Shown: piece after piece, positions 9,880-58,918 of the stretch
Position numbering within the stretch: position 1 is the stretch's first letter
How the letters are laid out: each line of letters starts with the position of its first letter
Origin: a phage
Sequence record: PZ445487.1
DNA: 64,000 nt
Reading direction: 5' to 3' (one strand)
The notes under the pieces: generated by a model
What the model saw: only the letters and a program-made list of their open reading frames with translations
Database searches by the model: none
What the model was told of the DNA's origin: nothing
Translations under genes and position numbers: made by a program

Positions 9880-10671
9880 ATGGGTATGAATTTTGTAGAC
9901 AGGGGTGATAACGTCACCAAATATTTCACAGACGAAGATAATGACCGTGTTGTTGGAATATTGAGAGATTGGATTCCGGCTCGCAAAAAGGCTTTGGCCG
10001 AAGGAACACCCCTACCAAGAATCCCCAATTATGTGGCCATGAATGTTCAGATGATTATTAAGAACATGAGTATGCGCTACAACTATCGTGATTATCCATA
10101 CCGCGAAGACATGGTCAGTGAGGCCGTTGTCAACATCCTTCGTTACCTCCATACATTTGACGTCAGTCATATCGGCAAGAAAGGAAAAATCAATTTCTTC
10201 TCTTGGGTAACGATGTGCGCCGATCGTTCATTCGCCAAGAAACTCACCAGTGAAGAAGAACACAATTATATCAAGTTGCGTTCATTTGAAGAAGCAGGTG
10301 GTTTCGCTGCATTATCAGATGACCCAGACTTCCAGCAACAGACATTCGTAGACAGCACTGGTATAACAATGGACTTCCGTGAGCGTATCGGAAATTTTGA
10401 AACTAAGAAAGAAGCACAGCGCGAAAAGGAACGCCAAAAGCAAATCGCCATCAAAGAAGAGGAAAAGAATAAGAAAATTCCTCGCGGTATACTTCAATGT
10501 CTCACAAAGAGTGAAAATACCATTACCGCCGACGCCGAAGATAATTCAGACTATGACTTCGGCTCTACTCAATTCAATCTGGAAGACGAAATATGTTCTA
10601 TGGAACCAGATTGGGAAGAAGCAAAGAAACGAGCATTAGAACGGGAGCAACAAAATAATGGCGATTGCTAA
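9880..10671 (+). CDS. 55: late-promoter sigma factor gp55
   Basis: Alignable by eye to T4 gp55 (RYNYRDY, LHTFD, INFFSWVTMCADRSFAKK); GAGGA RBS before internal ATG. Confidence 0.8.
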   Translation: MGMNFVDRGDNVTKYFTDEDNDRVVGILRDWIPARKKALAEGTPLPRIPNYVAMNVQMIIKNMSMRYNYRDYPYREDMVSEAVVNILRYLHTFDVSHIGKKGKINFFSWVTMCADRSFAKKLTSEEEHNYIKLRSFEEAGGFAALSDDPDFQQQTFVDSTGITMDFRERIGNFETKKEAQREKERQKQIAIKEEEKNKKIPRGILQCLTKSENTITADAEDNSDYDFGSTQFNLEDEICSMEPDWEEAKKRALEREQQNNGDC

Positions 10672-11775: not shown

Positions 11776-14109
11776 ATGAACAATGTAGACCTATTATCAA
11801 AATTTGGTTCGCTGTTGAAAGAAGCGGACACTCCTGTTTCTGTTGAAGTACCATTTGAAATTCGTGGGGAAATTACCCACAAACTGACTTTCCATCGCGG
11901 TCGCGCTAAAAACTTCCGTTCTATCGGTAATGAATTCATGGAAATTGATTACCAACGCAATTCGGCAACCTTGGTTACATCCGATGACAATGGCGCTGGT
12001 AAATCCACCATGCTTGTCTGGCTGCTGTTCTTCGTTCTGTATAATGACACATATAGCAAGAAAGAAAAGAAAGCCGGATTAGTCAATTCCCAAAACAAAA
12101 AGGAATGCGTGGGTGAAGTTGAGTTCTCCACTCGAGGAAGTGAATGGAAAGTCCGTCGTGGTATCAAACCTGATTTCGTAGAAGTCTATCAGATGGTAGA
12201 CGGTGAGTGGAAGCAGGTCGTGAATGATGCGGCCAAAGCCGACATGAACAAATATATTGTGAACCTGATTGGCGTAGACCAGAAGATGTTTGAGAACTCC
12301 CTGGTTCTAGGCAAAGAGAAGTTCATCCCATTCACGGAAATGTACACTGCCGACCGTCGCGCTATGGTAGAGACAATCTGGGATTTGGGGTTCTTCAGTC
12401 TGATGAATGAAGATGTAAAAGCATCTATCAAGACAGTAACGAATGAACTCACGACGGTCACCAATGATTACGCCTTTCATGATGTAAATTTAAAAGGCCA
12501 GCAAGCGCAGTTGGAACAGATCAATAATTCCAATGCGATGATCCAGCAACAATCTGCGGATATCCTTGTCCAAGAGAAGGAACGTCTGAATAGCCTGAAT
12601 TCAGATATCAACGCAGTGCAGGAACAACTGACAGAGTCCCGTGCTCAAGACTCTAAATTGGAATCAGAATTATCAGAAGTCCGTAATCGCCTGAACGCTG
12701 AAATGAAGGTGGATATCGATTCCATCAATGACGAGTATTTTGCCAAAATTCAAGCGGTTCAGGATGAGGCTGATACCAAGGCTGAAGACTATGAGCGTAT
12801 CGAGGTGTCTGATGGCGAACGTTCATTACAAGAAATTCGGGAGAGAATGGCGGTAGTCGCGGAACGTAAAAATGATCTGGTTAGCCAACGGAATGCTAAC
12901 CTGGATGAACTGAACAAAGCATTAGCGCGGCGTCAGCAGGGTGAGAACTTCCGTATCAAATTCGTAACAGAAATGGAAGGACATGAATCTGCCATCAAAC
13001 GTTTCCACGATATGGGCACTTGCCCTACGTGTACGCAATTAGTGTCGGACGATACCAAATCACGCATTGAAAGTCAATATTATCCACAAATCAGTGAACT
13101 GACTGACAAGATTCTTCAGGTTGATACAGCCCTAGAAGAAGTGAATTCCCTGATTGAGAATTACAATGTCAGAGATTCAGAATTATCTTCTCAGATTTCG
13201 GTTATTGACAAAGAACTGGATGCTTTGCGCAATGAAATTCGAGAAGCGGAATCGGCGATCGCTACATTAAAACGCGACATCCAAGGTTTCTACGAAGTTG
13301 CGGCGGTTGAGAAAACATCTTTACAGCGGGAACAACAGTCCAAAATTAACGACGTCCTCAAGGCCGTAGACACCCGTTACGAAGATATCACGACGTCAAT
13401 CCGTCAAGCCCGTGAGCAGCTCTCTAAGAGTATCAACGACACGGCTGATAAACTCACCAGCCTGAAATCACTCCGTGCCCCTCTGGAGGCATCCATTGCT
13501 GATTTAGAGCGTAAATTGGCGGTTAAGCCGACACCAACTGACGCCCTGGAAGAAGAGATCGCTCGCATCACGGCATTAATGGAAGATCTGAATGCGCGGC
13601 GCGTAGAGTTGGATGAGAAATTGCAAGACCTGAACCATCTTCTGTTCTTCCTAAAAGATGATCAGACCAAGGCTCGAATTATCAGTCTGTATTTGCCTTT
13701 CCTCAATAGTAAAATAAACGAGTATCTTGAAGCACTCAATATGTTCTTGGATATTGCTGTTGATGATACATTTGAAATCACCATGAGCGCTGCTGGTCGT
13801 AAAGGGCAAAGCATATTCTCCCTGTCTACAGGACAACGCAGCCGACTCAATCTGGCTGTGACATTAGCCCTACGGGACGTCGCTAACCTGAAGGCGTCTG
13901 TACAATGTAACCTCTTCGTGTTGGATGAGATACTCGAAAACATGAGTGAGCGAGGGGTTCAAGAATCCATCGAGATGCTGAAACATAAATTTGGTGGGAA
14001 CAATCTGTTTGTCATCAGTCAGCGTGAGCAGGAGTTCCAAGAATATTTCCAACATAACATTCGTTATGGTCTGCGTAATGGCATGACCGAAGTGATTAAG
14101 AAGGATTGA
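11776..14109 (+). CDS. 46: recombination endonuclease subunit gp46 (Rad50/SbcC-like ATPase)
   Basis: Walker A NGAGKST, long coiled-coil middle, C-terminal LSTGQRS signature-like and DE box. Confidence 0.85.
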   Translation: MNNVDLLSKFGSLLKEADTPVSVEVPFEIRGEITHKLTFHRGRAKNFRSIGNEFMEIDYQRNSATLVTSDDNGAGKSTMLVWLLFFVLYNDTYSKKEKKAGLVNSQNKKECVGEVEFSTRGSEWKVRRGIKPDFVEVYQMVDGEWKQVVNDAAKADMNKYIVNLIGVDQKMFENSLVLGKEKFIPFTEMYTADRRAMVETIWDLGFFSLMNEDVKASIKTVTNELTTVTNDYAFHDVNLKGQQAQLEQINNSNAMIQQQSADILVQEKERLNSLNSDINAVQEQLTESRAQDSKLESELSEVRNRLNAEMKVDIDSINDEYFAKIQAVQDEADTKAEDYERIEVSDGERSLQEIRERMAVVAERKNDLVSQRNANLDELNKALARRQQGENFRIKFVTEMEGHESAIKRFHDMGTCPTCTQLVSDDTKSRIESQYYPQISELTDKILQVDTALEEVNSLIENYNVRDSELSSQISVIDKELDALRNEIREAESAIATLKRDIQGFYEVAAVEKTSLQREQQSKINDVLKAVDTRYEDITTSIRQAREQLSKSINDTADKLTSLKSLRAPLEASIADLERKLAVKPTPTDALEEEIARITALMEDLNARRVELDEKLQDLNHLLFFLKDDQTKARIISLYLPFLNSKINEYLEALNMFLDIAVDDTFEITMSAAGRKGQSIFSLSTGQRSRLNLAVTLALRDVANLKASVQCNLFVLDEILENMSERGVQESIEMLKHKFGGNNLFVISQREQEFQEYFQHNIRYGLRNGMTEVIKKD

Positions 14110-19662: not shown

Positions 19663-20016
19663 ATGGTCAATGCGAGTATATTCATCAACCGTGGACTGCT
19701 TGCTATAGCCCACTCCCATGCCCTCCACTTCGTTACAACGTCCTATGCCAAGCACAAGGCACTCGGGGAGTTCTACGGGGAACTGGAGGACTTGCTGGAT
19801 ACCTTCACAGAGGCATATATCGGCGCGGGTGGTGTATATGTCCCAGGGTTTGAGAATATTAAACTGTACAACCCAGATCCTATATCGTATGTCAACAGTG
19901 TCGTTATCGACGTAAACGGAATTTATGGTCAATGCGACAGCCATCTTCAAAATACGCTTGATGAAATCAAAACTTTGTGCTATCAAACGATTTACAAACT
20001 GAAGCAATTGTCCTAA
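19663..20016 (+). CDS. hypothetical protein
   Basis: Internal ATG of ORF 19603..20016 downstream of terminator 19619-19648. Confidence 0.45.
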   Translation: MVNASIFINRGLLAIAHSHALHFVTTSYAKHKALGEFYGELEDLLDTFTEAYIGAGGVYVPGFENIKLYNPDPISYVNSVVIDVNGIYGQCDSHLQNTLDEIKTLCYQTIYKLKQLS

Positions 20017-20079
20017 CTCAATAGGATCATCGTCAGGTTATAATTTTGCCCATTCGTCATCAATAGGATACAGATAACA

Positions 20080-22060: not shown

Positions 22061-22089
22061 TTTACTCTTAAATAATCATGCACTATTAT
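22061..22089 (+). promoter_or_regulatory. early promoter (TTTACT-N17-TATTAT) with A/T-rich upstream region
   Basis: Hexamers at 22061-22066 and 22084-22089; A/T tract 22021-22060. Confidence 0.5.
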
Positions 22090-22142: not shown

Positions 22143-22169
22143 AACTACATTATGAGGAATTACATCATG
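22143..22169 (+). repeat. conserved early 5' leader motif (tandem variant)
   Basis: AACTACATTATG followed by AGGAATTACATCATG. Confidence 0.5.
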
Positions 22170-33029: not shown

Positions 33030-33037
33030 TATTTATA
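33030..33037 (-). promoter_or_regulatory. late promoter TATAAATA
   Basis: Perfect 8-mer on minus strand about 29 nt upstream of minus ATG at 33001; gp55 encoded in same window. Confidence 0.55.
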
Positions 33038-34976: not shown

Positions 34977-35208
34977 TTATGCCTGTACAGGTTGTGGAAA
35001 TTCGTTTAGTGCTCGAAAATCTTGTGCTGAACGTCATACACCTGAATTAGAGCCATGTTCTGAATGTGGCGGTGAAATAAAAATGATTATTGGAGCACCA
35101 AAGATCGTATCTGGTGTTCGTGGTCCTCAGTCCGCGCCTGATGGCTTCAAAGACGTTTTGCGTCATATTAAGAAGCAATCAGGGAAGGGGAATACAATCG
35201 ATGTCTGA
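34963..35208 (+). CDS. FmdB-type zinc-ribbon protein (putative)
   Basis: MPFYDYACTGCG...CSECGG two CxxC pairs in a short protein. Confidence 0.45.
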   Translation: MPFYDYACTGCGNSFSARKSCAERHTPELEPCSECGGEIKMIIGAPKIVSGVRGPQSAPDGFKDVLRHIKKQSGKGNTIDV

Positions 35209-35443
35209 TCAACAAATAGCACAAGTGCTCACACCAGATTCTTTTTCCGAATTGGTGTTGATGAGAGCAAGCCAACGCAAGGAATCAATCCTTGAAACGA
35301 TGGCCAGTGTTTGTGAAGAGTATGACATCGAAGAAGCAAAGGTCAAAAAATTGATCACGCCTCCTCTTCTGTCAAGGCTAACAGCTGAATGTTCTGATGC
35401 TCGGTTGTTGAAGGGTGAATTGAAATCTAAAAAACTCATTTAA
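35201..35443 (+). CDS. hypothetical protein
   Basis: Internal ATG of ORF 35090..35443. Confidence 0.4.
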   Translation: MSDQQIAQVLTPDSFSELVLMRASQRKESILETMASVCEEYDIEEAKVKKLITPPLLSRLTAECSDARLLKGELKSKKLI

Positions 35444-35788: not shown

Positions 35789-36820
35789 ATGGGTAATTTA
35801 TTTGATCGTCTTAAACAATCTCGTGGCCAACAAGCCGAAGCTATGCAACAGCGACTCGCTCAGCAAGGCCAGCGTGTTGGTGGCGGTCGTGACCCGCGCA
35901 TCTGGAAGTGGACCTGGAATGACAAGGGTACTTCTGAAAACATCATTCGTTTCCTGCCGATCCCTTTGGTGGACATGAAGGCTCAAGAAGAAGGCACCAT
36001 CCCTGAAGATGCTGTGTTAACTCCGTGTGCCATGATCATGAAACACGCATTCCAGGGCGCTGGTGGTTGGTATATCGAAAACTCTCCTCAGACTTTCGGT
36101 AACGATGATCCTGTTCGTGACCATGACCGTCCTCTGTGGGCACAACAGAAAGAAACGAATGATGAAAAGCTGAAAACAGTTCTCAAAAAACGTCTGCCGG
36201 ACACCAAATACTACGCCAACATCCTGGTGATCAAAGATGGTAACAATCCGGAAAACAACGGCAAGGTCTTCTTGCTTGAGTTCGGTAATGCCGTCAAGAA
36301 AATCCTGGATTCGGCTCAGAATCCTAAGTTCTCAACTGACCCTAAATTCGACCCGTTCGATATGTGGGAAGGCGCGAACCTGATTCTGAACCTCTTTGGT
36401 GAAGAGAAAGAGTTCGGAAACTGGAAAGGTCTGGTGGCTAACTTCACCAATGTGAAGTGGGATACTCCGGCACCTTTGGGGACAGACGAATACATTGAAG
36501 AGATCTGGGAAAAAGAACACAGTCTGTTTGAGTTCTTTAATCCGGCCAACTTCAAATCGTACGAAGATCTGGAAAAACGTTTGCGCAAAGTTCTGGCCAT
36601 CCCTGATAATCAGCCTCTGGTTGAAGGTGGTGCTTCTACTATGGCACATGCGCCTACCCAGTCTCAGGAACCCCAGCGCCCAACAGCGCAGGAAAGTCTG
36701 AACCAACAACAATCTCAGCCTTCTAATGCACAGCAATCTGTTCCAGCCAATAATGGTGGTGCCGATGCGAAACAGACGGCTTCCATTGATGAGTTCGAGC
36801 AGTTCCTGAAGCAAGACTAA
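35789..36820 (+). CDS. 32: single-stranded DNA-binding protein gp32
   Basis: Similarity by eye to T4 gp32 (IIRFLP, GGWYIENS, YYANILVIKD, NPENNGKVFLLEFG, WEGANLIL); acidic Ser/Gln-rich tail; terminator follows. Confidence 0.85.
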   Translation: MGNLFDRLKQSRGQQAEAMQQRLAQQGQRVGGGRDPRIWKWTWNDKGTSENIIRFLPIPLVDMKAQEEGTIPEDAVLTPCAMIMKHAFQGAGGWYIENSPQTFGNDDPVRDHDRPLWAQQKETNDEKLKTVLKKRLPDTKYYANILVIKDGNNPENNGKVFLLEFGNAVKKILDSAQNPKFSTDPKFDPFDMWEGANLILNLFGEEKEFGNWKGLVANFTNVKWDTPAPLGTDEYIEEIWEKEHSLFEFFNPANFKSYEDLEKRLRKVLAIPDNQPLVEGGASTMAHAPTQSQEPQRPTAQESLNQQQSQPSNAQQSVPANNGGADAKQTASIDEFEQFLKQD

Positions 36821-36828
36821 TTTCACTA

Positions 36829-36857
36829 AAGCCCCTTCGGGGGCTTTTTAGTTTTTG
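36829..36857 (+). terminator. rho-independent terminator after gene 32
   Basis: Hairpin AAGCCCC-TTCG-GGGGCTT followed by TTTTAGTTTTT. Confidence 0.65.
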
Positions 36858-37792
36858 ACAACATCCTGTAACAATCCCAACAGACTACTCTTCTCAGACG
36901 CCGTCAGGTTATCATTGCCTAATATATCCCTCTGGATGCCGATAGAGATCCTTTCGAAATCAGCCAAGCTGATACCAGCCAGATTGTTTACAAGCTGATC
37001 GAGTTGCTTATAAGCCAGCAGGGCTTCACCTGTGAAGTTTCCTTCTTTGATCTTTTTATACAGCTGTCCGGCTTTTGACGCAGCGGTTTCCCAGTCTCCG
37101 GAAGCAAGAGCATCAGTAATACCCAAAGGAAGAAAATCGCTGGCGAGGCTGCGCGTTTCATATTCAGTCTCCGATAATACTTTGTTATAAGAAAAGGAAA
37201 TGTTGTACTGATTAAATTGATCGGCGGCGCTTTTATCCAGGTCTATAGAACTGAAGTTGATGGGGTGAGCCTCAGTCACATAAACGCGATGAACAACCTG
37301 ATCTTCTGTATCCATTTGTTCTATACAAATATCGGTCACGAAATCTTCATAATAACCCATCTTGGTTGTGTATGGGTCGAATATCAGATTCTTCCATTTG
37401 TCCATGACCGACTTTTCATAATAATCGTTGGCGAGGAGGAACGACAACTCCAGATCAATGTTCGTCTTGTTGTTCGGCATTTTAATGTGGTTGCCGTTGT
37501 TGGTCATGGGAGTAGTGTCAATCCCTGTACCAGGTAAAGATGCGACCATACACATCATTTGCAGGGAACGAGATGTTTGGTTTGTCCCTCCAAAGAATGC
37601 GTTTACAATACGGGCGCTTTGTTTGAACAGATCCCCAAATGATGAAGATGAAGGATACGCGTTCCCATCATTTGCTAGTGTTGCATTGGAATCAAATATC
37701 CCAGGCGGCAACGGAATTGTAACACGAAATCTGTTCTTGCGGGAAATACCCCGTTGAAGCAGTTGCGTTAGAAAATTGCGATAGTCTTCCAC
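36848..37792 (-). CDS. late structural/assembly protein (function unknown)
   Basis: Start reassigned to GTG at 37792 (RBS GGAG), downstream of perfect minus-strand TATAAATA at 37827-37834; longer ORF would overlap divergent gene. Confidence 0.45.
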   Translation of the reverse strand: MEDYRNFLTQLLQRGISRKNRFRVTIPLPPGIFDSNATLANDGNAYPSSSSFGDLFKQSARIVNAFFGGTNQTSRSLQMMCMVASLPGTGIDTTPMTNNGNHIKMPNNKTNIDLELSFLLANDYYEKSVMDKWKNLIFDPYTTKMGYYEDFVTDICIEQMDTEDQVVHRVYVTEAHPINFSSIDLDKSAADQFNQYNISFSYNKVLSETEYETRSLASDFLPLGITDALASGDWETAASKAGQLYKKIKEGNFTGEALLAYKQLDQLVNNLAGISLADFERISIGIQRDILGNDNLTASEKSSLLGLLQDVVKN

Positions 37793-37826
37793 GATGAGGA
37801 CTCCATTTAAATAATATATCTGTTGA

Positions 37827-37834
37827 TATTTATA
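37827..37834 (-). promoter_or_regulatory. late promoter TATAAATA
   Basis: Perfect 8-mer on minus strand about 35 nt upstream of GTG 37792. Confidence 0.5.
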
Positions 37835-37846
37835 AGGAGTTGACAA

Positions 37847-38551
37847 ATGGCTAAGAACGCTATGGGTGAAGAAGACCCGTTGTTGCTTCCCGCCGAGATG
37901 GACGCCCCAGAACTGGTCAAGCGTTACATCCGCAAATATCGTCAACATTTTGGGCCGGAAGCGAAGCGTAATATCCGTCGTTCTCATGTGTGGTTTATGG
38001 AGCGCGTGTCGAAAGATGCTAACTTATCTCCGAATCACATGATGAAAGCATTCGCTGAAAATAAACGTCCTGTTCAGGGTGTGCGTTATATTGTTGGTCG
38101 CATGTATTATTTCAAATATGATGCGCTGACTAAAGATGAACTCCCGTATTGGGATATGTATCCTCTGGTGTTCTTCTTCAATTTTGTGAAGGGGGATGGA
38201 GTGAAATTCGGTGAACGTGGTGTAACCTATCTTTATGGCCTAAACCTCCATTATTTACCGCCTAAACTCAGATTGTTGGTATTTGAAGATCTCATTAAAT
38301 TGAGAAATGAACGGGCATATCGTTCTAAAACACGTTTGAGACTTACCTGGGATGCGCTAAAGCGGTTTGCGAATCACCCTTTGTACAATCATTGTGTCAA
38401 ATTATACCGCGCAGATCAATTTCGTTCACAACTTTATGAAATTGAACCGCAATATTGGGAGGTCGTTTTGTTTATGCGTACTGCTCGATTCCAGAAACAG
38501 AGCCAGATGTCTGTTTGGAAAGACGCTCGTCGTAAACACAAAAATGGTTAG
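37847..38551 (+). CDS. hypothetical protein
   Basis: ORF track; RBS AAGGAG. Confidence 0.5.
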   Translation: MAKNAMGEEDPLLLPAEMDAPELVKRYIRKYRQHFGPEAKRNIRRSHVWFMERVSKDANLSPNHMMKAFAENKRPVQGVRYIVGRMYYFKYDALTKDELPYWDMYPLVFFFNFVKGDGVKFGERGVTYLYGLNLHYLPPKLRLLVFEDLIKLRNERAYRSKTRLRLTWDALKRFANHPLYNHCVKLYRADQFRSQLYEIEPQYWEVVLFMRTARFQKQSQMSVWKDARRKHKNG

Positions 38552-38612
38552 TTCTAAAAGCCGTTCTATGGGATAATTCGCGAACGGCTTTCTATAAACA
38601 TGAGGTTATGAT

Positions 38613-39741: not shown

Positions 39742-39770
39742 GTTTACATCTTCTAAAAAGGCAGTATATT
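39742..39770 (+). promoter_or_regulatory. early promoter (GTTTAC-N17-TATATT)
   Basis: Hexamers read from sequence, upstream of acidic protein gene. Confidence 0.45.
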
Positions 39771-40857: not shown

Positions 40858-40869
40858 TTGGAGCATGTC

Positions 40870-41532
40870 ATGTCTTATTCGCTCAAAGGGCTGTTGAAGC
40901 GCCCTGTGCATTTGTTTGTCAAACCACCTGCTGTAGAAAGGGAATATTCGGCACGAGGAGAGTTGTATTACATTAAAGGCTCCAATGGTAGTGGTAAGTC
41001 TACTGTGCCTTCTTATTTGGCGGAGAATGATCCTCAGGCGTATGTCGTAACCCACAACAGTAAGATCATGCTCACGGTTTGTCCATCTTATAATATTGTC
41101 TGTGTCGGTAAATATGACAAGTCTAAGTCCAAAGGGGTTGATTCTCTGAAGGATACTGAGCAGATGTTGTTCGCGTTGTCTATTGCTGACCAACCAGAAT
41201 ACCTGAAATATGATGTGATTTTCGAAGGCATCATTCCGTCTACATTATTGAGTTCTTGGATTCCCCGCCTGACACGCCCACCACGTGAATTGGTCGTCCT
41301 CTTTATGGATACCCCTCTTGAAACCTGTATTGCCCGTGTTAAATCGCGTAACGGTGGCGCAGACTTCAATGAAAGTCTGGTGGTCGAGAAGTGGGAGAGA
41401 GTTCATGATCACCGTCAACGGCATAAAGGCTTGTTCCCTACCGTTCCCGCAGGTATGATGAAGTCCGATGGCCTGACTGTAGAGCAGGCTGTTTTTGCGT
41501 TTCTCAATCGTGATTTTGGGAGTATTTATTGA
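40870..41532 (+). CDS. P-loop kinase (candidate 5-hydroxymethyl-dU DNA kinase)
   Basis: Walker A GSNGSGKST; internal ATG with GGAG RBS; stop overlaps hydroxymethylase start (TGATG). Confidence 0.5.
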   Translation: MSYSLKGLLKRPVHLFVKPPAVEREYSARGELYYIKGSNGSGKSTVPSYLAENDPQAYVVTHNSKIMLTVCPSYNIVCVGKYDKSKSKGVDSLKDTEQMLFALSIADQPEYLKYDVIFEGIIPSTLLSSWIPRLTRPPRELVVLFMDTPLETCIARVKSRNGGADFNESLVVEKWERVHDHRQRHKGLFPTVPAGMMKSDGLTVEQAVFAFLNRDFGSIY

Positions 41533-58244: not shown

Positions 58245-58297
58245 GGTCTGAAGCCCTTTAATTAGAATAGAGTGATGACACTATTTAGGACTAGAAT

Positions 58298-58918
58298 ATG
58301 GCTATGTATTTGCAGGGGAAGTATGTTCCCGTAAATCCCAAGAAATATAAAGGCGACGTGAACAAAATAGTATTTCGTTCTTCGCTAGAACTTGTCGCCT
58401 TTAAATTTTGTGATATGAATCCTGCTATCGTCTATTGGTCTTCAGAAGAAACTGTAATCCCTTACATATCTCCGGTTGATGGCCGCGCCCATCGTTATTT
58501 CATGGATTTGAAGGTTTGGACTCGTCGGCAGGATTCCGATGAATTACAAATTACTCTTATTGAAATAAAACCCAAAGACCAGATTAAAGAACCTCGCAAA
58601 ACTAAAACGATGAAGGAATCAACATTCAATAATTCAATGCGCACTTGGTTGGTAAATCAGGCAAAGTGGACAGCAACTAAAGAACATTGCGCAAAGGTAG
58701 GTTGGAAATTCATTATCTGGACAGAAGAACATTTGGTGCCAGGTGAAGACCCAGAAGTTAAAAAACAATTTGCTCTTCGTTCTAAGAAAAAGCGCGAAGT
58801 CGAAATGGAAGATCGACGCCGCGCTCAAAGGATTAATGCGTTGAAAGAGCAAATGAAGAAGGAAACTGCTAATAAACAACCAACGCAATCGGAAGATGAT
58901 GGTTTGTTATTACCCTGA
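58298..58918 (+). CDS. hypothetical protein (possibly head-completion-type late protein)
   Basis: ORF track; divergent from baseplate operon. Confidence 0.4.
   Translation: MAMYLQGKYVPVNPKKYKGDVNKIVFRSSLELVAFKFCDMNPAIVYWSSEETVIPYISPVDGRAHRYFMDLKVWTRRQDSDELQITLIEIKPKDQIKEPRKTKTMKESTFNNSMRTWLVNQAKWTATKEHCAKVGWKFIIWTEEHLVPGEDPEVKKQFALRSKKKREVEMEDRRRAQRINALKEQMKKETANKQPTQSEDDGLLLP

Follow-up and report, generated by a model that had tools for sequence, protein, structure and literature searches.

The late promoters of bacteriophage T4 are the closest described counterpart of the locus presented here. They are built around an 8-bp -10-only box (consensus TATAAATA) which occupies positions -13 to -6 and stands before virion genes, with no conserved -35 element; late transcripts are able to run in either direction, and the loading strand of the T4 clamp determines the polarity with which it activates. 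In the Ackermannviridae, a conserved motif is said to have been originally described by Adriaenssens et al. 2012. The motif of this family ('Viunalikevirus') is quoted second-hand as CTAAATAcCcc, and Aeromonas phage Aeh1 has the late consensus (a/g)CTAAATA, that is, the (a/g)C variant of the T4 sequence at -13/-12. For Escherichia phage CBA120, the genome paper stated that the late-promoter sequence of the phage family was not identified, a gap that later papers and records partly fill. Indeed, the intergenic region studied here has annotated orthologues. In the record of Dickeya phage LIMEstone1 (HE600015), the hexamer orthologous to our gp2-side box is annotated as a 'putative late promoter' and a terminator is marked after gp54, and the paper on Shigella phage phiSboM-AG3 gives a late promoter ('Porf072') upstream of gp2. 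These two phages share with our locus the orthologous intergenic region, the gp2-side hexamer, the flanking genes and the terminator, but their annotations cover the gp2-directed promoter only: the gp54-directed box of LIMEstone1 (TATAAGTA, one mismatch from the consensus) is unannotated. The CBA120 records contain no regulatory features in the regions examined.

The stretch of DNA analysed (64,000 nucleotides, called the window below) comes from Escherichia phage CBA120 (Kuttervirus, Ackermannviridae; JN593240 / NC_016570): a megablast search with positions 36800-38600 gave 100% identity, and the whole window corresponds to JN593240 14302-78301 in reverse complement, with two single-base differences. 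Two genes diverge from a short gap in this region, their start codons being 54 bp apart. On the minus strand, orf081 (36848..37792, stop included; GenBank CDS, phrog_3629) starts with GTG and encodes a gp54-like baseplate tail-tube initiator of 314 aa, while on the plus strand orf079 (37847..38551; GenBank CDS, phrog_429) encodes a 234-aa homologue of the DNA end protector gp2. Between orf081 and the convergent plus-strand gene gp32 lies a GC-rich terminator (36828..36847), a strong hairpin whose equivalent is annotated in LIMEstone1 and which would keep upstream plus-strand transcription out of gp2. The gene orf081 is a lone minus-strand gene, bounded by this terminator on one side and by the 54-bp gap on the other.

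The plus strand across the gap reads ...actccatttaaataatatatctgttgatatttataaggagttgacaaATG and holds two facing boxes. The perfect TATAAATA reported on the minus strand at 37827-37834 is present as described; it reads tatttata on the plus strand, lies 34 nt upstream of the orf081 GTG and ends 12 nt before the plus-strand ATG (37847-37849). On the plus strand, the late-promoter-like box TTTAAATA (37806..37813, core TTAAATA 37807-37813) lies 33 nt upstream of ATG 37847. The boxes are separated by a spacer of 13 bp (37814..37826) whose sequence varies among relatives. The Shine-Dalgarno GGAG of orf081 (37801..37804, minus strand) is followed by an 8-nt spacer and the GTG (37792-37790). The AAGGAG of gp2 (37834..37839, plus strand) is placed 7 nt before the ATG, both being present as had been noted, and shares one base with the minus-strand box. 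Each box sits within the 5' leader of the opposite gene, and the description of the gap as a compact divergent control region holds. We propose, with a probability of roughly 0.78, that this gap is a bidirectional late-promoter region carrying two T4-type -10-only boxes on opposite strands, and that orf081 starts at GTG 37792.

The sequence-only reading that preceded this work had placed the minus-strand start at GTG 37792, with its GGAG, and this start is borne out by the GenBank annotation, the full-length profile match, the homologue alignment and the upstream stops. It had also held that a late promoter inside an annotated ORF forces a reassignment of the start codon; none is needed, because JN593240 and NC_016570 already begin orf081 at this GTG, and the product is 314 aa long instead of the 315 aa announced. 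The 379-aa ORF 36848..37987 (ATG 37987), in whose frame GTG 37792 lies, is merely the longest mechanical ORF. The phrog_3629 profile ('tail tube protein') matches orf081 over its entire length (E = 2.4e-180; residues 1-314 against profile positions 1-313 of 313). Matches found by tblastn in 361 phage records span at least 80% of the query and, among the matches listed (down to about 33% identity), the alignment begins at residue 1 of orf081 or a few residues off. This residue aligns with the start codons of the Dickeya, Erwinia and Vibrio phage homologues, M1 and D3 being invariant, and two Vibrio phages have ATG at the position equivalent to the GTG. Six relatives have an in-frame stop 3-11 codons upstream of the equivalent start, with no alternative start in between, and a 1-nt deletion in the gap of many relatives puts any read-through extension out of the CBA120 frame.

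Were the 379-aa ORF a real gene, the minus-strand box would lie within coding sequence. In CBA120-like genomes the 77 codons that precede the GTG are indeed free of stops and an ATG is available, but such an extension would cover the first 141 nt of gp2 in antisense, it is interrupted in relatives by the stops and the frame-breaking indel, and the family profile as well as all homologues begin at the GTG/ATG position. The comparative data effectively refute this gene model. On sequence comparison, the start at the GTG/ATG position is confirmed by profile, homologues and upstream stops, and since these same observations and the gap indel apply to the 65-codon extension (MRTTDITLRF...), the latter is judged an accidental, noncoding open frame. 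The predicted N-terminus from GTG 37792 is (M)EDYRNFLTQLLQR. As to the identity of the protein, its best match among solved structures is T4 gp54 (5iv5_W), a weak one (E = 0.005), and the Pfam gp19 family reaches 16.6 bits, under its curated cut-off of 28.2. The orthologue in LIMEstone1 (gp54, HE600015) carries the note 'confirmed structural protein'.

Like T4, CBA120 encodes homologues of gp55, gp33 and gp45. The gp55-type late sigma factor, which is expected to read the boxes, is orf120 (9880..10671, plus strand; GenBank; phrog_234, E = 1.6e-53). Only residues 12-207 of its 263 aa match the 181-position late-sigma profile, and its PHROGs assignment is clear, with no Pfam family and no match in the PDB sequence search. 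The gp33-type late-transcription co-activator is orf084 (35201..35443, plus strand; GenBank; Pfam PF16805, E = 4.6e-19), and the gp45 sliding-clamp homologue was recognised through phrog_223 (E = 1.5e-65).

The exact TATAAATA is not enriched in the 64-kb window (2 copies, for 2.05 expected from shuffles) and its frequency alone is therefore uninformative. Both copies lie on the correct strand, 28-34 nt upstream of baseplate genes, the second one (33037-33030, minus strand) being placed 28 nt before the gp26 baseplate hub gene. When the upstream regions of all virion genes were inspected, CTAAATA or ATAAATA was found to recur. Considering both strands of the whole genome, TAAATA occurs 74 times, and 29 of these copies lie 20-45 nt upstream of an annotated start on the same strand, a range that covers 1.7% of the position-strand slots and in which 1.2 copies are expected (binomial P about 5e-32). 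Fourteen control hexamers of the same composition placed 1-12 of their 88-193 copies in the same range, and the two highest of them, ATAAAT and AAATAT, are the TAAATA motif itself in a shifted register. The 29 positional sites are found 23-42 nt from the start codon. About half of them (at least 14) precede virion genes. Besides uvsW, a RuvC-like gene and a dozen genes without known function, the genes concerned include gp48, orf081, gp2, gp26, gp5, gp22, gp18, gp14, gp6, orf209 and orf211-213, the last three coding for tailspike or tail-fibre proteins. Taken together, the sites give the logo a(C17/A7/T4/G1)TAAATA followed by pyrimidines (consensus aCTAAATAyc). Upstream of the two bases that precede TAAATA (T4 positions -13/-12) no column is conserved, hence no -35 element either.

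This consensus, which was obtained independently from the sequences upstream of CBA120 genes, agrees with the CTAAATAcCcc quoted for the Ackermannviridae and with the (a/g)CTAAATA of Aeh1. Relative to T4, it differs by the C at -12 (17 of the 29 sites) and by the pyrimidine-rich tail, and in CBA120 the late-promoter assignment is drawn from sequence. The two boxes of the gap depart from the Ackermannviridae and Aeh1 consensus at -12, where the orf081 box has A and the gp2 box T, so that searches for exact CTAAATA miss both. The orf081 box, perfect with respect to T4 (8/8), belongs to the minority A-variant of the local aCTAAATA consensus. The gp2 box matches T4 at 7 of 8 positions and is itself one of the 29 positional sites. 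At -12 it has T, against C or A in the local consensus; since only 4 of the 29 sites share this base, the box may be weak.

The sequence-only reading had taken the minus-strand TATAAATA as the late promoter of orf081. Because it has the right orientation, stands 34 nt from the start codon and occupies the sole space available to a lone minus-strand gene, we consider that it is very probably a gp55-type late promoter; orientation, distance, conservation and the positional motif all agree on this point. Another explanation would make the box a chance occurrence, or a translation-related A/T-rich element of the gp2 leader, with orf081 transcribed from elsewhere. This would fit with the chance frequency of the 8-mer in the window and with the fact that the box abuts the gp2 Shine-Dalgarno. 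It is nevertheless very unlikely: with a terminator on one side and a 54-bp gap on the other, orf081 has no room for another promoter, the orientation and the 34-nt distance fall within the family distribution (23-42 nt), and distant relatives whose gp2 leader is different still have a (C/T)TAAATA oriented towards the gp54-like gene.

The conservation of the gap was examined by aligning ten distinct Ackermannviridae sequences, whose gp54-like proteins are 56-100% identical. In this alignment, TATAA(A/G)TA (the minus-strand box) is invariant or nearly so, and TTAAATA on the gp2 side (TATTTAA when read on the other strand) is invariant. Both ribosome-binding sites and both start codons are likewise invariant or nearly so, the GGAGT of orf081 being kept in nine sequences out of ten and the AAGGAG of gp2 in eight. 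The spacer varies in sequence and measures 13-14 bp in closer relatives, against 9-10 bp in two distant phages (L055 and L057), which still have the facing TAAATA...TATTTA pair although their protein identity is down to 30-33%. The order gp32 / gp54-like / gp2, with a divergent gap of 44-49 bp, is kept in Erwinia and Vibrio phages. Two Vibrio phages each have one canonical CTAAATA-type box: in L030 the gp2-side box departs from exact TAAATA, and in L031 no box can be recognised on the gp54 side. Conservation of the minus-strand box could partly stem from constraint on the gp2 leader, just upstream of the gp2 ribosome-binding site.

Since the two hexamers together make up a perfect inverted repeat (TAAATA-N13-TATTTA), are conserved across the phage family and constitute the sole facing pair of exact TAAATA in the CBA120 genome, they might instead be read as the operator of a dimeric DNA-binding regulator and not as two promoters. 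This reading is extremely improbable and was rejected: a single TAAATA, in one orientation and at a fixed distance, precedes 27 other genes without any partner half-site, the differences in spacer length between relatives (9 to 14 bp) would turn one half-site with respect to the other, and the motif matches the gp55-type consensus. As a separate observation, the gp4/gp48 gap may hold a similar facing pair through a TAATTA variant; this is unproven.

The plus-strand gene had been regarded as early, which does not fit with what was found: it encodes a homologue of the gp2 DNA end protector, it has its own conserved late box and the gap holds no early motif. The profile phrog_429 matches residues 9-233 of orf079 (profile positions 5-209 of 210, E = 1.1e-69), the protein having no Pfam family and no solved homologue in the PDB sequence search. 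In T4, gp2 is packaged with the DNA, virion-associated and made late, and genes 2 and 54 are both late genes. Within 37793-37846, we found no match to the sigma-70 consensus or to the family early motif TTCAAT-N14-TATAAT. Further downstream, a sigma-70-like promoter (score 10/12) is present at 39743-39770, upstream of orf076, and LIMEstone1 has a putative early promoter annotated at the equivalent place.

A model in which the gap combines the minus-strand late box with a host-type early promoter for the plus-strand gene, late activation then disturbing early expression, draws on two facts: further plus-strand genes belong to presumed-early DNA metabolism (hmdU kinase, thymidylate synthase, dUTPase, UvsX, gp41), and the terminator after gp32 means that downstream genes need a promoter beyond it. 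It is clearly unlikely, given that the gene has a late virion-associated function in T4, that the gap is devoid of both sigma-70-like and TTCAAT-N14-TATAAT matches, that the promoter upstream of orf076 accounts for the downstream early genes, and that the invariant TTAAATA box stands at the family-typical distance from the gp2 start codon. Most simply, gp2 would be a late gene, perhaps along with orf078 and orf077, and the early unit of DNA metabolism would start further down.

Returning to the bidirectional late-promoter region, we suggest the following sequence of events. Late in infection, the host RNA polymerase core associated with gp55 and gp33, and aided by the gp45 clamp, would open either box. 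According to T4 geometry, RNA synthesis would begin some 6 bp downstream of each box, at about 37819 on the plus strand and about 37821 on the minus strand, both positions falling in the 13-bp spacer. The leaders would be some 28-29 nt long and lead into the initiation sites GGAG/GTG and AAGGAG/ATG, with an overlap of about 3 nt between the 5' ends of the two transcripts. Our literature searches, some of them loosely specified, retrieved no transcript 5' ends, maps or time courses for Kuttervirus or Ackermannviridae. As the two polymerase footprints would overlap almost completely, open complexes could not coexist and only one direction would fire per initiation event. Moreover, because the T4 clamp has a polarity that depends on its loading strand, firing in one direction or the other would call for clamps oriented oppositely. 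The interference proposed by the sequence-only reading can therefore be kept in part: competition between the promoters is expected, but not between late and early expression, since both are predicted to be late. Overlapping face-to-face promoter pairs of bacteria and phages likewise have opposite strands, near-coincident predicted starts and overlapping footprints; the CBA120 pair differs in that both members are predicted to be of the late class and lack -35 elements.

The crossed arrangement of the boxes may simply follow from the fitting of two leaders of about 34 nt into a gap of 54 bp, and be without regulatory meaning. A stronger proposal would be that the facing pair, kept since the common ancestor of the Ackermannviridae, is a functional unit in which gp55-polymerases exclude each other and the orientation of the clamp chooses between the gp54-like gene and gp2. 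We find this unlikely; if true, it would tie the ratio of two low-copy virion proteins (gp54-like/gp2) to the polarity of replication through the locus.

The gap is best read as a compact, bidirectional pair of late promoters that belongs to a known class, T4-type in its Ackermannviridae variant, in a known phage. What is new is the orf081-directed box, unannotated in the records inspected, together with the conservation of the facing pair, and this is a small observation. It has little weight beyond annotation, as the public record already has the right gene start and the promoter class is known. It nevertheless yields 29 candidate late promoters in CBA120, which constitute a testable list, and the face-to-face late pair could offer a simple system for testing how promoters compete and how clamp polarity acts in gp55-type transcription.

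The predicted late-promoter box of phage CBA120 that faces the gp54-like baseplate gene orf081 (minus strand, 36848..37792), the 8-mer TATAAATA at 37827-37834 on the minus strand, has a single other exact copy in the window, also on the minus strand, at 33030-33037. This second copy is located in the 49-bp gap separating the divergent genes gp26 and orf089, 28 nt upstream of the baseplate hub gene gp26 (start 33001, minus strand). Another divergent gap, of 59 bp, separates gp4 and gp48 (window 58245-58303, corresponding to 19999-20057 of the record) and contains a CTAAATA oriented toward gp48 and, 17 nt from it, a palindromic TAATTA that could be a candidate box for gp4. This gap may hold a second pair of face-to-face late promoters. 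Variants of the TAATTA type were also found upstream of gp19 and gp20. At the level of the whole CBA120 genome, TAAATA, the core of the predicted T4-type late box, is under-represented, with 74 copies, compared with 88-193 copies of each remaining hexamer that has this base composition. Such a deficit is consistent with a selection against stray late-promoter cores within genes.

At the other end of orf081, the 27-bp gap between this gene and the convergent gp32 encloses a GC-rich hairpin (36828-36847, AAAGCCCCTTCGGGGGCTTT) followed by a T-run. This hairpin is likely a two-way terminator, and its equivalent is annotated in the record of the Dickeya phage LIMEstone1 (HE600015). As regards the gp54-like gene of Erwinia phage phiEa2809 (NC_027340), the start retained in RefSeq comes 23 codons after the conserved GTG, and the conserved N-terminus VQDFRNAVTEIVQRGLSRKN is missing from this CDS (L029, the phiEa2809 locus, 1501-1570).

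The window differs from the deposited CBA120 record (JN593240) by just two bases: a T instead of G at 13472, within the gp46 gene, and an A instead of C at 22070, which falls in the gap preceding orf104, about 97 nt before the start of this gene at 22167. With the latter change, a conserved TTCAAT becomes TTAAAT; in the early motif of the family, TTCAAT-N14-TATAAT, TTCAAT is the -35-like half. Over a 171-nt stretch around 22070, none of 265 related phage records matched the window perfectly (best match 99.4%).

Upstream of orf076, a sigma-70-like promoter (39743-39770, plus strand; TTTACA, 16 nt, TATATT; 10/12) coincides with a putative early promoter annotated at the same position in LIMEstone1, and probably marks the beginning of an early DNA-metabolism unit located downstream of gp2, orf078 and orf077. 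The plus-strand gene at 40858-41532 is labelled only "conserved hypothetical phage protein" in JN593240. Judging from its match to PF18748 (E = 5.6e-113), the predicted product is clearly a 5-hmdU DNA kinase. Thymidine hypermodification is known in the phage group of CBA120, and the position of this kinase gene, adjoining thymidylate synthase and dUTPase homologues, is in agreement with it.
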